From assembly GCF_003790525.1 (NCBI RefSeq), contig NZ_CP033635.1: 64,000 bases of DNA. One strand, 5' to 3'. The notes beneath the pieces were generated by a model. That model made no database searches and had not been told where the DNA came from. It saw only the letters and a program-made list of their open reading frames with translations. This document shows, piece after piece, positions 6,556 through 51,474 of the stretch (within the stretch, counting starts at the first letter, position 1; each line of letters starts with the position of its first letter). Both the position numbers and the translations under genes were made by a program. This stretch comes from Escherichia coli (GTDB lineage Bacteria > Pseudomonadota > Gammaproteobacteria > Enterobacterales > Enterobacteriaceae).

Positions 6556-7381
6556 TGGTTAAAAATCGTACGGTGTTGGCAGTGCCAACAGTGGTTAAAA
6601 ATTGTGCGGTGTTGGCAGTGCCAACAGTGATTAAAAAATGTACGGTGTTGGCAGTGCCAACAGTGGTTAAAAATTGCGCGGTGTTGGCAGTGCCAACAGC
6701 GGTTAAAAAGTGTACGGCGTTGGCAGTGCCAACAGTGATTGAAAAATGTACGGTGTTGGCAGTGCCAACAGTGATTAAAAAATGTACGGTGTTGGCAGTG
6801 CCAACGGTGATTAAAAAATGTACGGTGTTGGCAGTGCCAACAGTGGTTAAAAATTGCGCGGTGTTGGCAGTGTCAACAGTGGTTAAAAATTGTGCGGTGT
6901 TGGCAGTGCCAACAGTGATTAAAAAATGTACGGTGTTGGCAGTGCCAACAGTGGTTAAAAATTGCGCGGTGTTGGCAGTGCCAACAGCGGTTAAAAAGTG
7001 TACGGCGTTGGCAGTGCCAACAGTGATTGAAAAATGTACGGTGTTGGCAGTGCCAACAGTGATTAAAAAATGTACGGTGTTGGCAGTGCCAACGGTGATT
7101 AAAAAATGTACGGTGTTGGCAGTGCCAACAGTGGTTAAAAATTGCGCGGTGTTGGCAGTGCCAACAGTGGTTAAAAATTGTGCGGTGTTGGCAGTGCCAA
7201 CAGTGATTAAAAAATGTACGGTGTTGGCAGTGCCAACAGCGGTTAAAAAGTGTACGGCGTTGGCAGTAGCAACAGCGATTAAAAAATGTACGGTGTTGCC
7301 AGTGGCAACAGTGGTTAAAAAGTGTCCGGCGTTGCCAGTGGCAACAGTGTTTGAAAATTGTACTGAGTTGGCACTGCCAAC
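6556..7381. repeat. tandem array of ~23 x 36-bp repeats, each with a 17-bp palindrome TGTTGGCA-G-TGCCAACA (iteron/centromere-like)
   Basis: Read directly: 36-bp period (palindromes at 6574-6590, 6610-6626, ...), unit GTTAAAAATTGYRCGG + palindrome; last copies carry symmetric variant TGTTGCCA-G-TGGCAACA. Confidence 0.9.
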
Positions 7382-7486
7382 ATGACGTAATTTCAGTCAT
7401 TCCTTTTTTTATTTTTGATTGTCAGATCTCCGTCTGCAGGCTGACTATTTCAGCCCGATATCCTTTTCTTTTGCCGGAGATATAAC

Positions 7487-8228: not shown

Positions 8229-10247
8229 ATGCGTCTCTTTTTGTGTGAGAAACCTTCACAGGCCGGTGATATAGCCAGAGTACTTGGGGCTGCCAGACGT
8301 GTTGATGGTGCGATTGAAGGTAAGGACTTTGTTGTGACCTGGGCCTTTGGTCACTTGCTGGAGCAGGCGCCACCGGAGGCGTATGGTGAGCAGTTTGGCA
8401 GTCCCTGGAAAATTGACGTTTTGCCGGTCTTTCCTGAACAGTGGCAGATGGTGGTGAAGGATAATGTCGGGAAGCAGTTTAATGTGATCAGCCGCCTTCT
8501 CCGTAAGGCTGATGAAGTGGTGATTGCCACTGACGCCGATCGTGAAGGCGAAATTATCGCAAGGGAACTGCTGGATTATTGTGGTTATACCGGCGTTGTG
8601 CGCCGTCTCTGGCTGTCCGCACTGGATGAGAGCAGTATCAGGGAGGCGCTGGGCAGGATACTGCCCGGAGAGGAGACCGAGAAGTTATATGAAGCCGGTA
8701 AGGGACGCAGCCGGGCTGACTGGCTGACGGGGATCAACCTGACGCGTCTGTATACCCTGAAAGCCAGGGAGTGTGGTGTGTCCGGCGTCCTCTCTGTTGG
8801 CAGGGTGCAGACGCCCACGCTTGCGATGGTGGTCAGACGGGATGCAGAAATCAAAAATTTTATTCCGGTACCTTACTGGCAACTGTATCTCTGGCTGGAG
8901 AAGGACAATGTGCGTTTTCGTACCTCCTGGATTGCGGCAGCGCAGTACTGCGATACTGAAAAACGGTGTGTGAATGTGCAGGCGGCAACAGCCGTCCTGT
9001 CACAGTGTCGTCAGGCCGGTGTTGCTGTTGTCAGGGATGTCAGCAGCAGACGGGAGAAAAAGCAGCCTCCGCTGTGTTTTTCGCTCGGAACGCTGCAGGA
9101 GGTCTGTTCGCGCAAATTTGGCCTCGGCGCGCAGGCCGTTCTTGATATAGCCCAGTCGCTGTACGAAAAGCATAAGGCGACAACATATCCGCGTACAGAT
9201 TGCGGTTATCTGCCTGTGTCGATGTACAAAGAAGTGCCTGACGTACTGGCAGCGCTGGAAAAAACCGATCCGGATATTGCCCCGGAGCTGGCAAAACTCA
9301 GTCCTGATATTGTGTCGGGGATCTGGAACGACAGGAAGATCACCGCGCATCATGCGATAATCCCCACCCGTCAGCCGTTTAATATTGGGGCGCTGAGTGA
9401 TAATGAGCTTAAGGTGTACCGGTTAATTCGTCAGCATTATCTGGCTCAGTTTTTACCCGTTCAGGAGCTGGATGTCACAGAGGCCACTTTTCTTGTTGCG
9501 GGGCAGTTGTTTGGAACGCGGGGGCGAGTGGAGGTTGTCAGGGGATGGCGTGCGCTTTTTGTGTCAGATTCGGCGGGAGAGGAAGAGGATGTTGCAGACG
9601 ATGAGCAGGCGATGCCCCTTCCCGTACTGGCAAAAGGCGATGAATGTCGTCCTGCTGAAGCTGAACTCAAAGAGATGCAGACCACGCCACCGCGTCATTA
9701 TACGGAAGGCACGCTGATTGCGGCGATGAAAAACGCTGCGGGGATGGTGAGTGATCCGGCACTGAAAAAAGTGTTACGCGAAAATGCGGGGCTGGGCACT
9801 GAAGCGACCCGCGCAGAAATACTGGAAACGTTGTTCACCCGCAAATATATCGAGAAGCAGGGTAAGCATATCCGTGCCACGCAACTGGGGGCGGAGCTGA
9901 TAGCGGGATTGCCGGAGGCGCTGACCAGTCCGGGGACAACGGCGCTGTGGGAACAGGCTCTGGATGATATTGCACAGGGTAAACTGTCACTGTCGTCATT
10001 TATGGAAAAGCAGAAACAGTGGCTTAACCACCTGGTGGCCGGTGCAAGGCAGCAGCAACTGCAGATCACGGCACCGGTTACGCCGGCATGCCCTCTTTGT
10101 GGGAGCAGAATGCGGAAAGTGAAGATGAAAAGCGGGAAAGGGGAATTCTGGAGCTGCCAGCGTTATCCGGAGTGTAAGGGAGTGATTTCAGAGCAGAAAC
10201 CGACATCCGGGAAACGGGGCGGCAGAAAAATTAAAAAGCATGGATGA
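8229..10247 (+). CDS. topB: DNA topoisomerase III
   Basis: N-terminal Toprim motif MRLFLCEKPSQAGDIARVLGA, conserved topoisomerase IA core, C-terminal zinc ribbon CPLCGS...CQRYPEC. Confidence 0.9.
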   Translation: MRLFLCEKPSQAGDIARVLGAARRVDGAIEGKDFVVTWAFGHLLEQAPPEAYGEQFGSPWKIDVLPVFPEQWQMVVKDNVGKQFNVISRLLRKADEVVIATDADREGEIIARELLDYCGYTGVVRRLWLSALDESSIREALGRILPGEETEKLYEAGKGRSRADWLTGINLTRLYTLKARECGVSGVLSVGRVQTPTLAMVVRRDAEIKNFIPVPYWQLYLWLEKDNVRFRTSWIAAAQYCDTEKRCVNVQAATAVLSQCRQAGVAVVRDVSSRREKKQPPLCFSLGTLQEVCSRKFGLGAQAVLDIAQSLYEKHKATTYPRTDCGYLPVSMYKEVPDVLAALEKTDPDIAPELAKLSPDIVSGIWNDRKITAHHAIIPTRQPFNIGALSDNELKVYRLIRQHYLAQFLPVQELDVTEATFLVAGQLFGTRGRVEVVRGWRALFVSDSAGEEEDVADDEQAMPLPVLAKGDECRPAEAELKEMQTTPPRHYTEGTLIAAMKNAAGMVSDPALKKVLRENAGLGTEATRAEILETLFTRKYIEKQGKHIRATQLGAELIAGLPEALTSPGTTALWEQALDDIAQGKLSLSSFMEKQKQWLNHLVAGARQQQLQITAPVTPACPLCGSRMRKVKMKSGKGEFWSCQRYPECKGVISEQKPTSGKRGGRKIKKHG

Positions 10248-10514
10248 TGATTACATGCTTTTTTTTATTTGTTAAAGTACATACGCTTTGATGTATACCC
10301 CCGTTATCAGCGGGAAACAGAGTGGCGATTAAACAACGGCGTTGCTCTGTTTCTGATACAGCAACGACCACTGCGTCCGGTTGTGTTGCAAGGCGCACGA
10401 ACTCCGTGAAAACCGCGTCGGGAGTGATCCCCGGAGAAAAGTGAGATAACCTCAGGGCTGGTAACCCGTGACGGCGCTGAATTTTCAGCGCCGTTTTTTA
10501 TTGGTGTTTTCTGC

Positions 10515-10815
10515 TTGACTTTATTTATGGCTGTTTTAAAAATGAGCATGCTAAATAGCTGCTTTGCAGCCAACCAATCTCCCGGTGGTCTGAGAGGGAG
10601 GCTTACGCGACCACACTGTCATCTTCGGATGACCAGCCAATGTTCCAGCAGTCTGAGAGGAGCGCCTTCGGGTGACTGCCAGCCAATGTTTCAGCGATCT
10701 GAGAGAAACGCCTTCGGGTGATTGCAATATCCTCGTAGCCTGAAAGGGGATGCCTTTATGGCGGTACATCCGTTTAGCCTCTGGGAACGGATATCACCAC
10801 TGGTGATTGAGGTAC
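10515..10815 (+). ncRNA. candidate structured RNA or ssDNA element with three hairpin modules (copy 1), unclassified
   Basis: -35-like TTGACT at 10515; modules at 10587-10612, 10649-10678, 10695-10724 each with outer stem, UGAGAG-rich internal loop and CGCC-UUCG-GGUG tetraloop stem; extra hairpin GTCATC-TTCG-GATGAC at 10618-10633. Confidence 0.45.
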
Positions 10816-10937
10816 GTTTAACTGCACAGACAGCCGGAAATTCAGCTGATTCCGGCATCCCCGACGGGAACTATCACTCCCGTCAGGGCTGGTGATGTTC
10901 TCCGTCATATCTTTTTTTACTCCATGGAGAAATCATC

Positions 10938-11402
10938 ATGTCTGCAACTAACTCTACTTCTGCAAAAACTGAATACTTCAACCTGACCATGAAAGGTCTT
11001 GGGTATCTCAGCAATGTACGTCAGGTTAACCATCAGAACGGTTCGTTCCTCAGCTGCGTGATTAACGCACTGAGTGGACCAACGGACAATCCGTCCTATA
11101 CGCGTTTTGATGTCACGGTTGCCGGTAAAGAGGCGACCACCCTGATCTCCCGCTGCCAGAAAGCAGTGGATGAGGACCGCAAGGTACTGCTTGGTTTTAC
11201 GTTAAGCAACCTTGCCACCGACATTTTCACCCTGAACAAGGGGGAGCATGCCGGTGAGCAACGCGTCAGCCTGAAAGCCCGCCTGATCAAGGTGGACTGG
11301 ATAAAAATAGGCCAGGAGCAGGTCTATAAGGCTGAAAAAGCGGAGTCCCAGCCACCGAGCCATGGCACCACAAAACGTGAATACGCAGAAGACTCCTTCT
11401 GA
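10938..11402 (+). CDS. STY4534-family ICE protein (putative)
   Basis: 154-aa ORF with GGAGAAA RBS; family assignment from memory, uncertain. Confidence 0.4.
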   Translation: MSATNSTSAKTEYFNLTMKGLGYLSNVRQVNHQNGSFLSCVINALSGPTDNPSYTRFDVTVAGKEATTLISRCQKAVDEDRKVLLGFTLSNLATDIFTLNKGEHAGEQRVSLKARLIKVDWIKIGQEQVYKAEKAESQPPSHGTTKREYAEDSF

Positions 11403-11501: not shown

Positions 11502-11705
11502 ATGACTTCTACAAACGGTATTCTCGCAGCTGCGGCAGGTTATACATTACCTCTGGAAATACTCAAAAGTGGGCGCGGATATTATATTGGCACTCAGTGT
11601 TCTGAAGGACCGGTATCCCGTGAATCAGAAGAGTATTTCAAAAAATATGAGCAGGCTGAGCGGGCGCTGAAAAATGGCACCTGGACACAACGTCATGCCT
11701 GGTAA
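11502..11705 (+). CDS. DUF905-like small protein (YkfF-like)
   Basis: 67-aa ORF; resembles small proteins co-occurring with ssb in CP4-type islands (recollection). Confidence 0.35.
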   Translation: MTSTNGILAAAAGYTLPLEILKSGRGYYIGTQCSEGPVSRESEEYFKKYEQAERALKNGTWTQRHAW

Positions 11706-11717
11706 TGAGGAGGTGCT

Positions 11718-12275
11718 ATGGCTTCACGCGGCGTAAACAAAGTTATCCTGATAGGACATCTGGGGCAGGATCCGGATATCCGGTATTTCCCCAATGGCGG
11801 TGGCGCTGTGGCGAATCTGTCACTGGCGACCAGCGACACCTGGCGGGATAAACAGAGCGGTGAAATGAAGGAAGTTACTGAATGGCACCGCGTTGTTCTC
11901 TATGGAAAACTGGCTGAAGTTGCCGGCGAGTACCTGCATAAGGGGTCGCAGGTGTATATAGAAGGCCAGCTTAAAACCCGTAAATGGTTTGACCAGCAGA
12001 ATGGTGTGGACCGTTATTCAACTGAGGTTGTTGTGGGCGTGAATGGTGTCATGCAGATGCTGGGTTCATCGCGTCAGCAGGGCGCTTCCGGTAATGGTGC
12101 TTCAGCACTGGCACAAGGGGGCCAGGGACATCCGCCGAAGACGACCGGACAGACTGGTCGTGCCACCCGGACGACGTCAACGGGTAATGGTGCTCCACCA
12201 ATGGACTTTGACGATGATATCCCCTTTATGGGGCTCGGGTATGGCATGGAACGACGAATTATTCATGCCATGTAA
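11718..12275 (+). CDS. ssb: single-stranded DNA-binding protein
   Basis: OB-fold N-terminus [28 protein letters not shown], Gly/Gln-rich linker, acidic tail DFDDDIPF. Confidence 0.92.
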
Positions 12276-29753: not shown

Positions 29754-30136
29754 TGTGTCTGAAATACCCGAAACCGGAGGTGATGACAGAGGTCATGCCC
29801 GGGGGCAGCGTGTTTTTTCTGCCGCCGCAGGGAAAACCGGGTGTTGCGGATCTGGCGCAACCGCATCTGCAGCGCCTGCGGTCACAGCTTGAACGCAGGC
29901 TGGGTACGCTGCATCGTGTGGTGTGTCAGCCCCAGCGGGTGGGGCAGAGCAGCAGTGTGGCCGTGACAGCAGAAGGGGCGTGTGGCGAGGTGCATCTTCT
30001 GCTGACAGTAGGGGGGCATGAGAGCTGGCCCTCTGAAGAGGAATACCGGCATCCGCGCTGGTATATCCAGGTGGTGGATGCGGCCGATCTGTTCTACCTG
30101 CTGCTCTGGCTGTGTGATGGCGGGCAGGAAGCCTGA
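29750..30136 (+). CDS. hypothetical protein
   Basis: 128-aa ORF coupled to upstream ATPase gene. Confidence 0.35.
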   Translation: MMCLKYPKPEVMTEVMPGGSVFFLPPQGKPGVADLAQPHLQRLRSQLERRLGTLHRVVCQPQRVGQSSSVAVTAEGACGEVHLLLTVGGHESWPSEEEYRHPRWYIQVVDAADLFYLLLWLCDGGQEA

Positions 30137-30509
30137 AAAAACTGCCGCTACTGGCAACTGTGTCGTGGTGGCATGTTACTGGCAGGTGGTTTACGGAGTA
30201 TGGGCCCAATTCTGGCCTGCCGGAACATGCCCTTATAACCTTTAACACAGCGGTTACATAAAAAACAATGTCTTTTATGCACAGCAGTATTATGGCTGAA
30301 AGTGAAATAAAAGCGCGATATTATACTGCTTCGCGTCCGGTTGTCATTATCATGGATAGTGCGTTATGTTTATAAAGGCGTGACGGACGCTTAATTCTCA
30401 CGCAACGCACCCCTCTTAAATTTTCAGTTTCCGGTTTTGAATTTATTGCTGCTATTGGTGCTGCTTATGCGCACGCTGTAAGTCGGATATTGTCTGACGG
30501 AGGCGTACA

Positions 30510-36338: not shown

Positions 36339-36562
36339 TGAGCACGCCACGGGCAAGCCCTTATGGCTAAAGGAGAGGGAGATTGCCCGTGGCGGCCCAC
36401 TTTTTTTAATCATTTTTTTACCATGTTGTCCAGTATTTTTACATAAGTGAAACATCTGGTGTTGTTTTCTGTTCATCGTGCTGGAAGTTACAGGGCTTGT
36501 AATTGAACGGGGAGAGATGTAATTTACGTGCGCAAAAATTTTACTCAAGGGGGAGAAAACCG

Positions 36563-36826
36563 ATGAAACCGAATATCCATCCTGAATACCGTACTGTGGT
36601 GTTCCACGATACCAGTATCGATGAGTACTATAAAATTGGTTCGACCATCAAGACTGAACGTGTGATTGAGCTTGATGGTGTCACCTATCCGTACGTAACA
36701 ATTGATGTTTCCTCTAAGTCGCATCCTTTCTACACTGGCAAACTGAGAACTGTTGCTTCAGAAGGTAACGTGGCGCGCTTTAACCAGCGTTTCGGTCGTT
36801 TTGTTGACACCAAAAAAGGCGCATGA
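36563..36826 (+). CDS. rpmE2: 50S ribosomal protein L31 type B (zinc-independent paralog)
   Basis: [18 protein letters not shown]...[19 protein letters not shown] matches YkgM-type L31; in frame within track ORF 36503..36826. Confidence 0.8.
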
Positions 36827-38795: not shown

Positions 38796-39070
38796 TTGAC
38801 GATAGCTTTTTTCTTTTGTTATTCTGTACCCGCTTTAACTGTCGCTTCGGCGACCAACCAATCTCCCGGTGGTCTGAGAGGGAGGCTTACGCGACCACAC
38901 TGTCATCTCAGGATGACCAGCCAATGTTCCGGCAGTCTGAGAGGAGCGCCTTCGGGTGACTGCAATATCCCATGAGCCTGGAAGAGGATGCCTATATGGC
39001 GGCAACATCCGTTTAGCCTCTGGAAACGGATGTCACCAGTAGCTGGTGACTGAGGTACGTTATTTTTACC
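38796..39070 (+). ncRNA. candidate structured RNA or ssDNA element, two modules (copy 2)
   Basis: -35-like TTGACG 38796; hairpin GTCGC-TTCG-GCGAC; modules matching copy 1 A and B; terminal hairpin GTCACCAG-TAGC-TGGTGAC + T-run near 39031-39068. Confidence 0.45.
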
Positions 39071-39818
39071 TTCGGATTACCCGTACGGTTTTGTATGTCA
39101 TGAAACTTACGAGTTTTCCTCTCGCAGAGTGGCGAAAATGCCTTATATATCTGCGTCTTAAAGATTTTCTGTCTGGCTGCATGAGCTTCTTGTGACTGTG
39201 CGCACGGCATAAGGCCATTTGAAATTTGGCTGCTTGCGTGTGTACGTGGAGTCTGAAGCTGTGCGGCGTCACTTGCGTGCGACCGGAGGGAACACCAAGT
39301 GACGCCACAACAATCTGCCCTGAAAGCAGCATCACGTAAGGCCAGCCAGAAAATCGTCGCTCGTGACCAGCGTTCTGATGACCGTTTCGTCTGTCTGACA
39401 GCGTCTTTCAGTAACGTGTCCATGCCTTTCCGGCGCGTCCGTTTTCACGGACGGCCACGCCGGAATGTCTTTTTAAACTTCATAATACATGAGAGGTAAG
39501 TGTATTAAATAGTTGAAAAAAGGAATAAATATGAAAAATCGTTCTGATGTCGGAAGGCGTCATCGTAAGATGACGGGGAGTAAAAAATCGCCCTGGTGCA
39601 CAGGTAGCGAACTCCTGTAAAAACTCAACATGTGCAAGCTCTGCTACATCGACATCAAACGAGCCAGGAAGGCGAGCAACCGCGTTACAGAGCCGTCCGT
39701 GATGACGAAAAACTAACAATATCAACGATCTGGTCTGTTTATCGGAAGGGCATCTCATGCAGTTGAACTTTCAGAACGGATGGTTTTCTGCATCTTTTTT
39801 AACAGGGGGATTGACGTT

Positions 39819-40736
39819 ATGTCCCGTAAATCGTCACGTTCCAAAGTTGAAGTCTTTCGCAAGTCATTCATCTCACTTGCCCGTGATTGTGGTGGCAGCT
39901 ACGCAACAACCGCTGACAGAATGCGAATTGCCAGATACTTTTTGAATTATTTGCAAGTAAACGGTATCAAACTTCGTCAGACGGGCAGTATTAAGACGAG
40001 GCATATTTCTGGTTATCTTCTCAGCAGGAAAGAGCAGGGGATCTCTCACCGCACAATTCAGAATGAACGGGCAGTTATGCGCGCAATTCTAGAGAAAGAT
40101 GGTCGCCTTAAAATAGCGGATCCGTCCAATCCTTTATTGAGCAATGAAGCTCTTGGACTCAGGGATACATGCCGTGATGGTAAAAAGATACCACTCTCAC
40201 AGGATGAGTTTAATAAAGCCTTCAGTAAGGTTGAAAAAAATAATCCCGGTGTTGCTGCAGTAATGCAAATTTCTTATGTTCTTGGACTGAGGACAAAAGA
40301 AGCTGTTCAGTCTTGTAAATCAGTTAACTCGTGGCTACGTGAACTTGATTCAGGGCATGATTCTCTTCTCGTTGTTTTTGGGACGAAAGGTGGAAGGCCC
40401 AGAGATACAACGATCATTAATCGTGATGCAGTGAAACATGCGCTCATTTATGCAAAAAACATTATGGATAAACAGAATGGTAAACTTATCGATTGCCCCA
40501 ATATTAAACAGGCTATAAACGTATATCGTTACCATGTAAGAAAAGCTGGTTTATCTGGAGTGAAGGCACCACATAGTATGCGTTATCATTTTTCGCAGGA
40601 AGCAAGGCAGTTTTATCGAAAAAGTGGATATGGAGATAAAGAAATTTACGCAAGGGTTTCCATGGACCTTGGTCATGGTGACGGAAGAGGGCGTTATGTA
40701 AAACAGGTCTACTTTAAAGGCGATGATGAGAGCTGA
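39819..40736 (+). CDS. tyrosine recombinase/integrase-like protein
   Basis: ATG 39819 preceded by GGGGGA; SAM-like N-terminal region; candidate catalytic residues GLRTKEA, HSMRYHF, GRGRYVKQVY. Confidence 0.5.
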   Translation: MSRKSSRSKVEVFRKSFISLARDCGGSYATTADRMRIARYFLNYLQVNGIKLRQTGSIKTRHISGYLLSRKEQGISHRTIQNERAVMRAILEKDGRLKIADPSNPLLSNEALGLRDTCRDGKKIPLSQDEFNKAFSKVEKNNPGVAAVMQISYVLGLRTKEAVQSCKSVNSWLRELDSGHDSLLVVFGTKGGRPRDTTIINRDAVKHALIYAKNIMDKQNGKLIDCPNIKQAINVYRYHVRKAGLSGVKAPHSMRYHFSQEARQFYRKSGYGDKEIYARVSMDLGHGDGRGRYVKQVYFKGDDES

Positions 40737-41593: not shown

Positions 41594-41890
41594 TTGAAGT
41601 TTTATGCAGTTTGTGCTTACAATTTAAACGCTAACTTGTCGCTTCGGCGACCACCAATGTTCCATGTGGCCTGTGAGGAACGCCTTCGGGTGGCCCACGT
41701 CGCTCCGGCGACCACCAATGCTTCATCTGACCTGTGAGGAGCGCCTTCGGGTGGTCAGTTTTACACCTCCTGAGCCTGAAAGGAGCTGTGCGTGCTGAAG
41801 GGATATGTTCCCGGAAGTACGGGCAAATCTGCGCACCTTTGAGAGCAGATGTCACTGCGGTTTTCCGTGATGATGAAGGCTTTTTTATCA
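41594..41890 (+). ncRNA. candidate structured RNA or ssDNA element, two modules (copy 3, divergent)
   Basis: TTGAAG (41594) and TACAAT (41618) promoter-like pair; two modules with stems GUGGCC/GGCCCAC and CUGACC/GGUCAG around UGUGAGGA-CGCC-UUCG-GGUG; T-run near 41881. Confidence 0.4.
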
Positions 41891-43368: not shown

Positions 43369-43878
43369 ATGAAAACGAAAACTTCTGCACCTGCTGTATA
43401 TGTTGGTACCTGGGCTAAATACAACAATGGCAGCATAGAAGGATGCTGGTTTAATGATTTAACCGTTTTTGAAACTGAAAGCGATTTTTTATCTGCGGCC
43501 CGTAAGTTTCATCAGGATGAAAAAGATCCTGAATTTATGTACCAGGATTATGAAAACTTTCCTTCGGGAATGGCTTCAGAATATGGTTTCAACTGGGCTT
43601 ATGTTGAAGGTTATCGTCTTGCCCGTGAAGAAGGCTGTGAAGATGCATGGTATGCATGGGTTTCTAATACCGGTGATACCTGTTTCGAACAGTTCAGGGA
43701 GGCGTGGCTTGGTGGTCCTTATGACAGTGAACTCGAGTTCGCCGCGCAGTACGTGGATGAATGCGGTTTTCTGTCAGAGGTACCTGATACTGTTGCACGC
43801 TATTTTGATTATGAGGCTTTTGCGCGCGATTTGTTCATGGAACTGGATTTTGTCGACGGACACGTTTTCCATCGGTAA
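43369..43878 (+). CDS. ardA: antirestriction protein ArdA (DNA-mimic, anti-Type I R-M)
   Basis: Motifs AVYVGTWAKYNNGSI, DPEFMYQDYE and C-terminal ARYFDYEAFARDLFM match ArdA family; very acidic. Confidence 0.85.
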   Translation: MKTKTSAPAVYVGTWAKYNNGSIEGCWFNDLTVFETESDFLSAARKFHQDEKDPEFMYQDYENFPSGMASEYGFNWAYVEGYRLAREEGCEDAWYAWVSNTGDTCFEQFREAWLGGPYDSELEFAAQYVDECGFLSEVPDTVARYFDYEAFARDLFMELDFVDGHVFHR

Positions 43879-46519: not shown

Positions 46520-49435
46520 TTACTGAGTCAGTTTTTTTATCAGGTCGTGAATTTTATCACCTGAAAACTGGGTCATGAAAGTTATCTTTATGGATTTACT
46601 GATTTGTTCGAAGAGTTTCTGTGCATGTTTTATTTTATCGCGTTCTTCATGTCTGAGTTCACGTTTGCCATCAACATTTTTGGTTTCAATAATAAGGTTC
46701 AGATAATCACCCTTTGACGTGTTTACAACATAAGCGAAGTCAGGGGAGTAAGTGTATCCTCCCGCTACAGGAATTTTTATTGAATTTTTGGGGATCTTTG
46801 TGAAGACAATGACTGACCTGACCTCACCCTCTGTCATATTGAGTTTTTCAAGTTCTGAATCATAAAATACTTCTTCAAAAAGATAAGAGTCCAGTGGAGG
46901 GCTTGTATTATCCTGTAAAACGCCAAGATCACTTGACAATACATCAGCAAGATAACCGCCGTCTGCATTGGTGAATTTCGTGGGATGGACAGTTCCTGAT
47001 ATTACATTATACCCAAGGCTGAATTTACTGAACGAGTTATTAAGCAAATACTTGCTGAAACCAGATTTAATTTTTCTGATTGTCTGAATGTTAAGGTATT
47101 CAGTTATATTTATGATGTCTTTTATATCACAAAAAACCTTATGCATGGTGTCATGTTTGACAAAAATAGTCTGTGATAATTTATCAAGGAATTCACGATA
47201 GCTCATTGTGTTTATTTTGTGAAAATTATCCTCATCAACACTGAGAATGCTTTTCGACATTGCCGTATCATTATGGATATAAATTCTTTCAATACGAGTA
47301 TGAGCACCGGATTTGGTAAATCTGTCTGCTTCTTCCAGCATAAACGCTCTGAAAAGGGATAAAAACTCACGTTCACTTTTTATTTTATACTCAATCACGA
47401 CCTTTTGATTGATCAAGTCCCATAGTTCTTTCAGCTCACTGAACTTACCAACACGCATTTTAGTGCGTCTTTTTCCATCAGAGGCTTTTTTTATTTTGCC
47501 TGGTTTCACTCCTGCAGGAAATGCTGCCGGATATCTGGCTTTTAAGCGGCTATAGGCATCTGAATCTTTGAAGTTATCATTATCATCAATGATCTCATCA
47601 TCAAAAATTTCATTCAAGAGTGTTCTGGAGGAAAGCTCCGGATATTGAGACAGGATTTTATCCTTAAGTTCCTGAGTAAACTTACCTGGAACAGTCTCTT
47701 TGAAAGAACTATCGTTGATCTCTTTGACAAGAGAATCGACAAAATCTTTTTCTGTAAAATCAACATAATAGTTGAGGGTAAAATTGCGGTCTTTCACACG
47801 ACACATGTATTCATTCACCGGAAGACGTAAACCACGCCCTACTTCCTGAAGTTTAGATGTGGTGCTACCGCTCGAACGGAGCTTACAAATCTGAAAGACA
47901 TTTGGGTTATCCCATCCCTCACGCAACGTCCATTTAGAGAAAATGAAACGGCGAGGATTTTCTAAAGACAATAGAAGCTCTTTATCATGAAGGATTTCGT
48001 TGATTTCCTGCTCAATTTTATCATCTTTATCACTATTATCTTTTGAAAAATAACCACCATGAACAGAAGATATATCCTTAACAGTTTTTTCAAGGTAGTT
48101 TCTGTAAAACTCATCTTTTTCTGTTTTTAACAGTTCATTTGCTTCTGCCAAAACGTATTCTTCGAACTTAGTTTTCAGGCTTCCTGCAATATCATTACCA
48201 TCACGATAGCCTTCAATGTCATCAATGAAGAAAAGAGTAAGAGGTTTTATGCGTGGCCTTTGTGTCAGATACTCTTTTTCTAACTTAAAGTGTTCTTTGA
48301 CAGCTTTACGTATCATGTTATCAGCAAGTGTCTGATCGTAAGAATAGGGGTTTATCGAACTACCAATTTTTAGCTCAATACCATTACTCAACACTGCTGT
48401 ATTCTTATTTAAAGCATCAAGAGTTAAATCATGGATCGCACTATGCGTCTTAGATAGTGATTCACCTTTGGCTAACTTAAAAATTTTTTTATTATTATTT
48501 TCGTTCAGTTCAAATGTAGCTTCTTTTCCGTCAGATTTGACCAACTTGAGGTTGGCATTACCATCACCAACTATATCCTCAATGTATGCATCAATACCTT
48601 TAACAAGATCTTCATTGAAGGCATCTACGGCTGTAAGACGATAAACTAAGTTCTTATAGCCTTCACTAAAGGTTGCACCATAGCGGATGATATATTGGGC
48701 ATTAAATTTTTGAATATGTTCCCATGTCTTTTTACCAGTAGGAAATTTATGAGGCTCATCAATGATAATGAATGGTTTTATCGCACTAAGTGCAGAAAAT
48801 GGGGTATCAAACTGATTATTAAGCAAGCCAACATCATAAGTGTCAGTTAAAGACTTAGAGTTAATCATCCCTGAATTGATCACAAGAATGTGTATATATT
48901 TCTTATTGAAATTACTTGCTTCAACAAAATCATGGATAGCTTGAGGCATATACGATTTTGTATTTTTACCCGAACGTTTCTGACTTTCAACAACGTAAGT
49001 CTTTAGTTCACGCTCGTAATCATCTCGAAAGTGTTCTTTTATAGCATCGCTTTTTAAAAAGTTAACGGTTCCGGCTTTGATCGATAGGGTAGGAACAATG
49101 ATGATAAACTTGTTAATACCAAATGATTTGTTCAGGTCAAAAATTGTTTTGGTGTAAGTATAAGTTTTACCTGTACCTGTCTCCATAGAAACATCAATTA
49201 CGTTGCTTTTAGCATCGTAATTATCTTTTGAGTGCTCAATACCATTGAACTCCTGAACATTTTTTATGTTGTTGTAGTATTGTTGTTCAGATAGATTCAG
49301 TTCTGGATTAGCTAACAGGCGAATTGCAACATGATCCGTCTGATGAGGTATGGCGGATACAAAGACATTCATTACCGAATCAACGCCAGCCTTTTGATGA
49401 GGTAAATTTTTTTCGAATGTGAACCCTTTAGACAT
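46520..49435 (-). CDS. res: Type III restriction endonuclease subunit Res
   Basis: SF2 helicase motifs METGTGKTYT and IIIDEPHKF; C-terminal PD..(E)xK-like YSPDFAYVV...IIETK; directly downstream of mod; AT-rich. Confidence 0.85.
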   Translation of the reverse strand: MSKGFTFEKNLPHQKAGVDSVMNVFVSAIPHQTDHVAIRLLANPELNLSEQQYYNNIKNVQEFNGIEHSKDNYDAKSNVIDVSMETGTGKTYTYTKTIFDLNKSFGINKFIIIVPTLSIKAGTVNFLKSDAIKEHFRDDYERELKTYVVESQKRSGKNTKSYMPQAIHDFVEASNFNKKYIHILVINSGMINSKSLTDTYDVGLLNNQFDTPFSALSAIKPFIIIDEPHKFPTGKKTWEHIQKFNAQYIIRYGATFSEGYKNLVYRLTAVDAFNEDLVKGIDAYIEDIVGDGNANLKLVKSDGKEATFELNENNNKKIFKLAKGESLSKTHSAIHDLTLDALNKNTAVLSNGIELKIGSSINPYSYDQTLADNMIRKAVKEHFKLEKEYLTQRPRIKPLTLFFIDDIEGYRDGNDIAGSLKTKFEEYVLAEANELLKTEKDEFYRNYLEKTVKDISSVHGGYFSKDNSDKDDKIEQEINEILHDKELLLSLENPRRFIFSKWTLREGWDNPNVFQICKLRSSGSTTSKLQEVGRGLRLPVNEYMCRVKDRNFTLNYYVDFTEKDFVDSLVKEINDSSFKETVPGKFTQELKDKILSQYPELSSRTLLNEIFDDEIIDDNDNFKDSDAYSRLKARYPAAFPAGVKPGKIKKASDGKRRTKMRVGKFSELKELWDLINQKVVIEYKIKSEREFLSLFRAFMLEEADRFTKSGAHTRIERIYIHNDTAMSKSILSVDEDNFHKINTMSYREFLDKLSQTIFVKHDTMHKVFCDIKDIINITEYLNIQTIRKIKSGFSKYLLNNSFSKFSLGYNVISGTVHPTKFTNADGGYLADVLSSDLGVLQDNTSPPLDSYLFEEVFYDSELEKLNMTEGEVRSVIVFTKIPKNSIKIPVAGGYTYSPDFAYVVNTSKGDYLNLIIETKNVDGKRELRHEERDKIKHAQKLFEQISKSIKITFMTQFSGDKIHDLIKKLTQ

Positions 49436-49437
49436 GA

Positions 49438-51474
49438 TTAGTTCCTTACCACCAAATCTAAATCAATAGATTTTTTATTAGCATAACTTTTTAGTGCTTC
49501 ATTGAGTTCCATCTGTTTCGCACTTTCGAAGTTGCTGCCATAAAATACAACTTTGTTAGGGGCAAAGTCTTTGTCTGCATCCAGCTTTTGAAGTAAAGCT
49601 TTCAAAGCCTCACTTGTGAAATTAGGCGCAATTAGATATAGCCGACCATCGCACAAGTGTGCTTTGTAGCCATTAAGGTCAATATCTTCAATTGGTGTTG
49701 TTAGCAAGCTGCCATCATACACGCACCATGTCGTCAATAGAGTGTCATACTGCTCTGGTGTCAATACAGCATCGTCAAAGAAACTAAGATTAGAAAGCGT
49801 AAGTTCAGACTCATCTTTCACTCGAAAATTATGAACTGTTTCAAATATTTTAAATCCCAAATCTCCATTATAATTAGGATTATCTTTTTTCAGCTTTTTT
49901 CCTGCCTTAATAATTCTGTCTTTTGTTATATTGAAGATGGATTTATACCCTTCTTTATAGGCTTGTTTCTTTTTATCTGTTTCTTCATCTAATTGAACAC
50001 AGATGAAGTTTCTTTTCCTGCCGTCTTCAATATTTAACTCCAGAATACCATGAGCTGTAGTTCCAGAGCCAGCAAAAAAGTCAAGATAAATGTCTTTATC
50101 TTCGGCTTTTACTGAACCAAATAGTGTTTTTATTAAACTTGTTGGCTTCGGGTAGGAGAAATATCCTTTCCCACCAAAAAGATTTTCAACCTCAACACCA
50201 CCATCACTTTTAGTTGAAATAATTGATCTTAGTAAAAACTCTTCAACTTCATCTAAAAATTTAACCGAACTGGGTTGGGTGTTTTCTGTACTGGCAAACC
50301 AAATTCCACCACAAATAACGCTACCATCATGTAGTTTTTTGATATCTGCATACTTTCCATCTATTCTTTTTGCAATATGATTAAAAGTGCCTTCTTTCCA
50401 ACGCCAGCCTCTGTCTGGGATTTTGACAGGGTTATTAGTCAAAGGGTGCAATACTTCATACGTGGGTCCAAATGAATCTGCATTAGGCCAGCTCATATTA
50501 ATTTTACCCCATGGCCTATAATCTTCGTTCAAACAGTTGTAAAGAGTAATTCCACGATCATATCCGTTGGAGCTGTAGAATTTTTTGAGTTGCTGCTCTG
50601 CTTTATCTAATGGCACCTTCTCCTTTTTTAACTTTTCAATAAACTGATATACATCATCAATACCATCTTTCCGCATTAAAAATTCTTTACTTATTTCGTT
50701 ATTCTTCGCATAAGCAAGGATGTACTCATGGATATTACCAATACCCTTATCATTTTTAGGGATACGTTTATTCCATACAATATTTTCTATGAAATTTGCT
50801 TCGCCAAAAATTTCATCACAAATAGTTTTAAGTTGATTTAATTCATTTTCGTCAATCGAAATAAATATCACACCATCTTCACGTAGAAGCTCACGAGCAA
50901 TATATAAACGAGGATAAATGAACGTTAACCATGCGCTATGGCTGCTTGAACCATTCGTGGTAAATTCAAGTATACGTTTAGCCTCATCAAGATCGATACC
51001 TGCCAGATCAGAAAGCTGTTCAGGTGTAAACTTGCGATCATCGTTATAGGCGAATCCATCCTTACCTGTATTGTATGGTGGATCAATGTAAATCATCTTC
51101 ACCTTTTCAGAGTAAGCATTAACCATATGCTTCAATACTTCGAGGTTATCCCCTTTGATTAACAGATTCTGACTGTTTTTGTTCTCTTCACGTTGGTTAT
51201 GGTCTTTATCTTCGGAGAGTAATGTCTTCGGCGGCAAGTTAGCTAACAGACGGGCATAGGATTTACCAAGCCAGTTCAGGCTGTATGATTCTTTGGAGAG
51301 TTCAACATCCGATGATTTGACGATTTCAAGCAATTTTTCCTGAATGAACGCTCCATTTTTATCAAAACACTGTGGAAAGTTAGCCTTTAAAATCGCAAGC
51401 TGTTTACTGTTTGTGGTTTCAGTTTCAGAGAAAAGAGTTTCTTTTTTCAGTTGAAATTGGGGTTGTGTATTCAT
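49438..51474 (-). CDS. mod: Type III R-M N6-adenine methyltransferase Mod
   Basis: DPPY motif (IYIDPPYNTG) before FxGxG motif (LDFFAGSGTTAHG); N-terminus resembles EcoP15I-type Mod; GGAGGT RBS. Confidence 0.88.
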   Translation of the reverse strand: MNTQPQFQLKKETLFSETETTNSKQLAILKANFPQCFDKNGAFIQEKLLEIVKSSDVELSKESYSLNWLGKSYARLLANLPPKTLLSEDKDHNQREENKNSQNLLIKGDNLEVLKHMVNAYSEKVKMIYIDPPYNTGKDGFAYNDDRKFTPEQLSDLAGIDLDEAKRILEFTTNGSSSHSAWLTFIYPRLYIARELLREDGVIFISIDENELNQLKTICDEIFGEANFIENIVWNKRIPKNDKGIGNIHEYILAYAKNNEISKEFLMRKDGIDDVYQFIEKLKKEKVPLDKAEQQLKKFYSSNGYDRGITLYNCLNEDYRPWGKINMSWPNADSFGPTYEVLHPLTNNPVKIPDRGWRWKEGTFNHIAKRIDGKYADIKKLHDGSVICGGIWFASTENTQPSSVKFLDEVEEFLLRSIISTKSDGGVEVENLFGGKGYFSYPKPTSLIKTLFGSVKAEDKDIYLDFFAGSGTTAHGILELNIEDGRKRNFICVQLDEETDKKKQAYKEGYKSIFNITKDRIIKAGKKLKKDNPNYNGDLGFKIFETVHNFRVKDESELTLSNLSFFDDAVLTPEQYDTLLTTWCVYDGSLLTTPIEDIDLNGYKAHLCDGRLYLIAPNFTSEALKALLQKLDADKDFAPNKVVFYGSNFESAKQMELNEALKSYANKKSIDLDLVVRN

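Follow-up and report, generated by a model that had tools for sequence, protein, structure and literature searches.

Identity of the element downstream of topB

What is the hairpin-rich, non-coding element that follows topB in a 64,000-nt stretch of Escherichia coli DNA (assembly GCF_003790525.1, contig NZ_CP033635.1; the whole stretch is called the window hereafter), in which molecule does it act, and on what? The window is a chromosomal integrative and conjugative element (ICE) of E. coli of the SPI-7/ICEclc type. An initial annotation had described positions 10515-10815 as the first of three copies of an unclassified structured element, RNA or single-stranded DNA, that matched no RNA family known to it. 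An Rfam scan of the whole window, however, assigned 10617-10770 to the STAXI RNA (RF01728) with a score of 139.2 bits (gathering score 40.5, E 4.7e-30), and the match was full-length (model positions 1-153 of 153). Because this covariance-model score lies far above the gathering score, the element at 10558-10818 on the plus strand is a copy of the catalogued, already known STAXI RNA motif. The label "unclassified" is therefore wrong: a confident hit to a known family was what the initial annotation itself had named as refuting it. The same scan returned two further STAXI matches, copy 2 (38901-39060, 89.1 bits) and copy 3 (41637-41808, 83.3 bits), and one EFASI RNA (RF02957; 39539-39661, 77.2 bits vs gathering score 51.2). 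A single-unit model, R1, run over the window detected units at these three STAXI loci only, so that the count of exactly three copies stands.

STAXI was described in 2010 by Weinberg et al. (PMC2864571), whose main-text passage on the motif presents it as a pseudoknot with 2 or 3 repeats and derives the acronym from "Ssbp, Topoisomerase, Antirestriction, XerDC Integrase". The same passage leaves action as RNA or as single-stranded DNA undecided, with RNA preferred on account of the UUCG loops, which are argued to stabilise RNA and not DNA. None of the literature found on STAXI assigns it a function, more than 15 years after its description. Since the family has been in Rfam since 2010, the element is not a discovery, and its interest is that of a functional puzzle. 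Copy 1 shares with the family the tandem pseudoknot units, the UUCG loops (hairpin P1, units 2 and 3; unit 1 has UUAC) and the enterobacterial host; the genes that neighbour STAXI elsewhere in Enterobacterales, for Ssb, topoisomerase, anti-restriction proteins and XerC/D-like integrase, are its neighbours in this window too. Family members have no fewer than two units, most often three; copy 1 has four (10574-10768), and nothing speaks against its membership. Beyond the Rfam match, it carries one extra divergent unit on the 5' side (10574-10614), and its conserved structure extends about 50 nt on the 3' side, to 10818. The original alignment by Weinberg et al. appears to cover this terminal domain, which is not claimed as new here. 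The promoter distance, strand asymmetry, locked start site and plasmid pairing with EFASI reported below are absent from the main-text STAXI passage of that paper (PMC2864571), and the rest of the literature was not searched for them.

Fold of copy 1

On its gene-sense strand, copy 1 consists of two simple hairpins, four tandem H-type pseudoknot units of about 43 nt and a terminal pseudoknot domain, which together occupy 10558-10818 (Table 1). The initial annotation had counted three hairpin modules, and a direct-repeat family of three members of about 46 nt is indeed present (10570-10615, 10633-10678 and 10679-10724; the outer members are 61% and 87% identical to the middle one), but the array also includes a 5' hairpin, a weak fourth unit and the terminal domain. 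Each STAXI unit is an H-type pseudoknot. It begins with five unpaired bases (CCAAU); bases 6-10 are paired to the 3' half of a 10-nt bulge that is present on one side only, and the outer stem, of 6 bp, is stacked directly on a 3-bp inner stem (G·U, C-G, C-G) closed by a UUCG loop. What had been read as an internal loop is this one-sided bulge, the inner stem is 3 bp long, and the tract 5' of each hairpin, which had been taken as wholly single-stranded, is unpaired in its 5' half and base-paired in its 3' half.

The hairpin modules with stems that differ and stay complementary were found where the initial annotation had placed them (outer stems GGUGGUC/GACCAC, GCAGUC/GACUGC and GCGAUC/GAUUGC). 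The pseudoknot helices (CUCCC/GGGAG, GUUCC/GGAGC and GUUUC/GAAAC) are compensatory in the same way. The two additional hairpins that it had listed also exist, namely GTCATC-TTCG-GATGAC (10618-10633) and ATCCGTTT...GAACGGAT (10769-10792). Unit 1 lies outside the Rfam match, and an identical unit is found in copy 2 (38858-38898). Unit 4 corresponds to the last unit of the Rfam model, and units of its CUGAAAG type were found again in other arrays. A block of 100% identity on plasmid NZ_CP059920.1 stops at the end of the terminal domain (10818).

Selection on structure, folding strand and promoter

A sequence-pattern scan of one genome per species gave 77 loci, of which 74 contained genuine units (in Enterobacterales or in metagenome-assembled genomes of unresolved taxonomy) and three were chance matches without a unit. 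This pattern prescribed CCAA, CUG.GA and the loop (UU.G) and left the stems free. In the alignment of 97 distinct units from the 74 loci, 94.0% of the cells formed a standard pair, compared with 79.1% in shuffled alignments (0 of 500 as high) and 31-56% when partners were slid, and 12 of 14 pairs showed changes on both sides. The pseudoknot helix was paired in 94.8% of its cells with all five pairs covarying, the outer stem also covaried, and UUCG formed the inner loop in 92/97 units. These data bear out the proposal that selection acts on secondary structure rather than on coding. The flanking parts of the arrays behave likewise: a hairpin stands directly 5' of the first module in all 72 unique arrays, with 29 distinct stems, and the terminal domain is present in 77/93 arrays, with 30 distinct T1 stems. 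The terminal loop CCUU pairs with a tail AAGG or AGGG, and CCUC is matched by GAGG in 5/5 cases.

Thermodynamic folding was less telling. The initial annotation had suggested folding both strands as RNA and as single-stranded DNA; the z-scores (-0.26 to -2.4) are uninformative and do not single the region out. Nested folding is unable to represent pseudoknots, and the support for the STAXI structure in copy 1 is comparative, not thermodynamic.

The alignment also identifies the strand. In the three helices of the 97 units, G·U combinations outnumber A·C combinations by 153 to 19, and G·U closes the inner stem in 79/97 units. The gene-sense strand is the strand under structural selection, because its complement would carry C·A mismatches wherever G·U pairs stand.

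The TTGACT noted at 10515 in the initial annotation is the -35 box of a promoter-like site, and such a site is present at all three copies in the window. Across loci, 61/89 unique arrays have a sigma-70-like site ending 25-40 nt 5' of the first strong module, compared with 0.9% of positions drawn at random from these loci. The predominant form is TTGACA with a 17-nt spacer, and the hexamers and their spacing are kept while the spacer sequences have diverged. In published work, strand-specific RNA sequencing of Pectobacterium showed a STAXI transcript after topB, and reverse-transcription quantitative PCR detected STAXI RNA in E. coli vesicles. We favour transcription from an ordinary duplex promoter, and STAXI most likely acts as RNA.

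A proposed structured leader ahead of the downstream gene

The position after topB given by the initial annotation is correct, but the gene directly downstream is a STY4534-family gene, with ssb further on (Table 1). Three families recur as the first sizeable co-oriented open reading frame after STAXI: it encodes an integrase-like protein in 24 arrays, a STY4534-family protein in 19 and a 133-aa protein in 7. Fourteen arrays have topB upstream. From STAXI to the start codon, members of the STY4534 and 133-aa classes have a conserved sequence, which forms a GC hairpin followed by a stem of 9-12 bp made by UGUUUCUCC and GGAGAAACA and reaching the AUG. At least four of five Shine-Dalgarno bases are paired in 30/32 unique leaders, with a mean z of -3.9 relative to shuffles of the upstream part, and the stem beside the AUG covaries among leaders (GAUG/CAUC, GGUG/CACC, GGUU/AACC). 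No conserved terminator was found 3' of STAXI: terminator-like sites within 400 nt occur in 23/85 arrays in sense and 27/85 in antisense orientation, and their position is not fixed.

Table 1 Coordinates of STAXI copy 1, its leader and related features (window positions unless a locus is named)
Feature	Position	Strand	Basis or remark
topB	8229-10247		upstream of copy 1
Sigma-70-like promoter, TTGACT-17-AAAAAT	10515-10543	+	predicted transcript start near 10550
5' hairpin, GCUGC-UUU-GCAGC	10558-10570	+	read from the sequence; same place as P1 hairpin of other arrays
Pseudoknot unit 1, divergent: tract CUCCC with bulge GGGAG, outer GUGGUC/GACCAC, inner GC-UUAC-GC	10574-10614	+	module model R1, 30.4 bits, E 6e-8
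P1 hairpin, GUCAUC-UUCG-GAUGAC	10618-10633	+	Rfam STAXI model positions 2-17
Pseudoknot unit 2: CCAAU single-stranded, GUUCC/GGAGC, outer GCAGUC/GACUGC, inner GCC-UUCG-GGU	10637-10679	+	R1 67.2 bits, Rfam alignment, family covariation
Pseudoknot unit 3: GUUUC/GAAAC, outer GCGAUC/GAUUGC	10683-10725	+	R1 66.0 bits, Rfam alignment
Pseudoknot unit 4, CUGAAAG-type: tract AUCCUC with bulge GGGGAU	10726-10768	+	Rfam alignment positions 113-153; R1 weak, 11.8 bits
Terminal pseudoknot domain: T1 stem AUCCGUUU/GAACGGAU, loop AGCCUCUGG	10769-10818	+	conserved across arrays; loop CCUC (10778-10781) is paired with tail GAGG (10809-10812)
T2 hairpin of terminal domain	10793-10807	+	
Two leader hairpins: GCCGGAA...UUCCGGC and CCCCGACGGGA...UCCCGUCAGGG	10833-10888	+	conserved in class-1 and class-3 leaders
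Start-site hairpin	10890-10938	+	covers Shine-Dalgarno GGAG (10926-10929), reaches AUG of STY4534-family gene; conserved in homologous leaders
STY4534-family ICE replication protein gene	10938-11402	+	first gene 3' of copy 1
Small hypothetical gene	11502-11705	+	
ssb	11718-12275	+	
STAXI copy 2, promoter TTGACG-18-TATTCT	38796-39060	+	followed by EFASI, then integrase-like gene 39780-40736
EFASI RNA (RF02957)	39539-39661	+	Rfam; known STAXI companion
STAXI copy 3, promoter TTGAAG-18-TACAAT	41594-41880	+	upstream of hypothetical genes and ArdA (43369-43878)
STAXI-EFASI pairs on small plasmids	L002 78-880; L082 2302-3061; L083 4374-4834; L084 5123-5750		

Distribution and small plasmids

A STAXI match was found in 729 of 5,426 complete E. 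coli genomes (13%) and in 38 plasmid records; the genome matches include an ICE remnant within the O157:H7 urease island. A link to phages was considered and rejected, as none of 50,697 phage records contained a match and viral contigs gave a single one. RefSeq annotates nothing, or a hypothetical protein, over STAXI, so that flagging the element prevents false gene calls.

EFASI at copy 2 follows STAXI by a few hundred nucleotides and precedes an integrase gene, in keeping with the description of its family. Its structure is unlike that of STAXI, and in the window it accompanies copy 2 only and is absent at copy 1. It also joins STAXI on small plasmids: on four of them, which represent three or more replicon types, EFASI comes after STAXI in the same orientation without an integrase gene downstream. 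These are a 3.1-kb Rep_1 rolling-circle plasmid (100% identical to 10570-10818), an untyped 5.3-kb E. coli plasmid and two ColE1-like plasmids from Pantoea and Rahnella. On the ColE1-like plasmids RNAI lies on the STAXI strand, and on the Rep_1 plasmid rep lies on the opposite strand. The two RNAs are separated by anything from 157 to 480 nt, and therefore it is the RNAs themselves that are kept. STAXI was also considered as a single-strand origin of rolling-circle replication. The pC194-type nick sequence CTTGATA has three one-mismatch sites against 5.6 expected, and rep stands on the opposite strand; as a general explanation this fails as well, the other small carriers not being Rep_1 plasmids. 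The copy on an IncK2/Z plasmid is a remnant cut by an insertion sequence and is uninformative.

A role in the leader or in trans

On balance, we lean towards STAXI being the promoter-driven 5' domain of a long structured RNA leader on operons for ICE establishment. At copy 1, the sigma-70 promoter would start a transcript of which STAXI forms the first ~270 nt; without a terminator, this transcript would run through the two leader hairpins and the stem that locks the start site into the STY4534-family gene and then ssb. A matching arrangement heads the integrase-like gene at copy 2 and the ArdA operon at copy 3. The downstream gene would be closed by default, its ribosome-binding site and AUG being locked in a stem, and the repeated pseudoknots, each displaying an invariant unpaired CCAAU and UGNGA, would form a multivalent platform. 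Its partner could be a protein, or a ribosome in standby mode, and would set the stability or translation of these start-closed messages; the link between the pseudoknots and the opening of the start site is one that we infer. STAXI heads operons that are needed on conjugative arrival (ssb, the integrase-like gene, ArdA), and the analysis opens it to experiment: the transcript start is predicted, the pseudoknot pairs that mutations could disrupt and rescue are defined, the locked ribosome-binding site offers a read-out, and plasmids of 3-7 kb are natural minimal carriers for a test of action in trans.

Several observations weigh against this leader function. Rfam files STAXI as a small RNA (sRNA) gene. 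At copy 2, the next gene is 720 nt away, with EFASI and its own promoter-like site in between, and the plasmid pairs without an integrase gene suggest a function in trans that is independent of a downstream gene. The 5' and 3' ends of the transcript and its partner are predictions. Since the search pattern fixed CCAA, CUG.GA and UU.G, the invariance of these motifs arises partly by construction; many arrays are related by descent, and the counts are thus not independent events; and the minimum-free-energy z-score of the region as RNA is -0.26, folding alone not marking it out.

Possible, though doubtful in our estimate, is that STAXI is a trans-acting sRNA, released by termination or processing, whose pseudoknots titrate or recruit a host or ICE protein, often together with EFASI; the protein sponge proposed by the initial annotation forms part of this idea. 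The sRNA typing by Rfam and the four plasmid pairs with their variable spacers favour it, as do the presence of 1-4 units per array and three arrays per element and published data in which STAXI and EFASI ranked with the most abundant of the RNAs assayed in E. coli vesicles. However, the partner is hypothetical, a conserved terminator is absent after STAXI in the 85 arrays, and two of the three gene classes show conservation and structure all the way from STAXI to the start codon, which ties STAXI to the gene downstream. An array of this kind resembles CsrB/RsmZ in showing a short motif many times on one RNA. Unlike those RNAs, with their many A(N)GGA loop motifs, STAXI has no GGA hairpin-loop motif of the CsrA type: its loops are UUCG, the GGA in the bulge is variable and paired in the pseudoknot, the invariant motifs are CCAAU and UGNGA, and a terminator is usually lacking. 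Nor do the units fit CRISPR arrays, in which identical repeats are separated by unique spacers, or retrons, which have an adjacent reverse transcriptase: they abut, differ in sequence and have none of the corresponding genes annotated nearby. The antisense seed suggested by the initial annotation found no support: the complement of the conserved tract, RRCATTGG, occurs once outside STAXI in the window, which is below chance, and this lone site (54273, near a start codon) was taken as a chance occurrence.

Action in trans could go further. STAXI, usually with EFASI, might be a self-contained RNA module acquired by mobile elements, serving as an RNA-only factor for establishment, for anti-defence or for hitch-hiking; it may, for example, decoy a nuclease or a single-strand-binding factor of the host, or give its carrier a handle on an ICE in the same cell. 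Small plasmids of the rolling-circle and ColE1 types do carry the pair without an associated protein gene. We consider this reading unlikely; if true, it would make STAXI more than a gene-specific leader.

Single-stranded DNA, decoy and antitermination

Very unlikely, in view of the strand and promoter data, is a role of STAXI as single-stranded DNA, either on conjugative entry or in replication, as a Frpo-like promoter or an ssi/sso priming site. The idea was raised in the STAXI passage of Weinberg et al. (PMC2864571) and again by the initial annotation, and it has its attractions: like the Frpo/ssi promoters that plasmids carry in their leading regions (Masai and Arai 1997; Samuel et al. 2024, PMC11541004), STAXI is a structured non-coding element directly 5' of ssb and anti-restriction genes on a conjugative element, with topB, ardA and an integrase-like gene nearby; CTG is invariant in every module; and STAXI is found on small plasmids that replicate via single-stranded intermediates. 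Frpo, however, is one long imperfect hairpin on the template strand that rebuilds the -35 and -10 boxes as a duplex (PMC11541004), whereas in STAXI it is the sense strand that folds, into a chain of pseudoknots, as the excess of G·U over A·C shows. Its boxes (10515-10543) lie 5' of and outside the fold, and when either strand is folded as DNA they stay unpaired or fall within a small local loop, with no duplex rebuilt, so that the Frpo/ssi proposal failed on its testable features. An ordinary duplex-type promoter is kept at a constant distance, and both the UUCG loops and the conservation of a terminal G·U indicate RNA; these three features also make a priming site on the sense strand improbable. 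On the ColE1-like and Rep_1 plasmids, given the orientation of RNAI and rep, the exposed strand would by textbook replication geometry be the complement of STAXI. For the window ICE, the ICEclc papers gave no usable position of the transfer origin (oriT).

ToxI-type arrays consist of tandem pseudoknot repeats behind a promoter. It is conceivable, but highly improbable, that STAXI is an RNA decoy or antitoxin-like array of comparable design, whose pseudoknots would serve to neutralise some nuclease or defence protein in the new host. The order of promoter and tandem units (~36-45 nt in ToxI type III antitoxins and STAXI) is similar, and STAXI is associated with anti-restriction genes and small plasmids. 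ToxI-like loci have near-identical repeats followed by a terminator and a ToxN-type toxin; in contrast, the STAXI units of copy 1 are 61-87% identical and vary in sequence while keeping their structure, neither a terminator nor a ToxN-like toxin follows, and the downstream genes vary. The proteins encoded downstream of STAXI (STY4534-family, integrase-like and unnamed) match no defence or toxin family in PADLOC.

The slightest chance of all is given to a cis-acting RNA that would make RNA polymerase resistant to termination over the conjugation operon, by analogy with the HK022 put RNA or the EAR element: STAXI does stand directly after a promoter and right after terminators, and is co-directional with the run of same-strand ICE genes that extends for ~27 kb after copy 1, but copy 2 heads one gene only, with a convergent gene next, and the small plasmids have no downstream operon.

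The host element and its other features

Over 5.5 kb, the window matches E. coli chromosomes with 100% identity. A near-identical ICE of strain TUM1887 has parA at one boundary and traI, int and tRNA-Phe at the other; the relaxase gene is at the far end of the element, beside the integrase gene. In BLAST comparison, the window is not colinear with the TUM1887 element beyond 17.7 kb.

R1 located the units of copy 2 at 38858-38898 and 38921-38963 and those of copy 3 at 41654-41697 and 41715-41758. The integrase-like gene of copy 2 stands alone, the next gene being convergent. EFASI has a promoter-like site of its own (TTGAAA, 15-16 nt, AAAAAT) that ends at its first base both in the window (39513-39543) and in one small plasmid (L002 731-758), which fits a separately transcribed small RNA. 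A gene for type B ribosomal protein L31 (~36559-36822) is located a few kilobases upstream of copy 2, and in the O157:H7 island remnant (L086 2533-3238) genes for type B ribosomal protein L31 and Hok/Gef lie upstream of STAXI.

Between the topB stop codon and the STAXI promoter of copy 1 lies a second conserved structured element (10296-10500, plus strand). Its helices are several, its loop ACUCCG (10401-10406) is complementary to CGGAGU (10432-10437) and could pair with it, and an intrinsic terminator is located at 10470-10495. In an alignment of nine sequences, 87% of the cells were paired compared with 73% in shuffles and 34-43% with slid partners, and 35 of 54 pairs changed on both sides, the structure having been derived from the same alignment that was used to score it. 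The element stands 84-134 nt upstream of STAXI in 13 loci and matched no Rfam family at E values up to 10. It may be an undescribed RNA.

Directly 3' of a gene for a STY4528-family "replication protein", 23 tandem copies of a 36-bp unit (89% matches) occupy 6556-7382, where RefSeq places a hypothetical coding sequence across them; these repeats look like iterons of a vegetative origin of the ICE. Cargo genes at 46520-51474 (minus strand) include one for a type III restriction endonuclease (971 aa; it scores 1074 bits to PRK15483) and, next to it, one for a DNA methyltransferase; the stretch that holds them is absent from the otherwise similar TUM1887 ICE. Conversely, the window (30066-30160) is without the insertion of iha, a siderophore receptor/adhesin gene, that the TUM1887 ICE carries (L001 30430-32737), and positions past that point are therefore offset by ~2.65 kb between the two elements.

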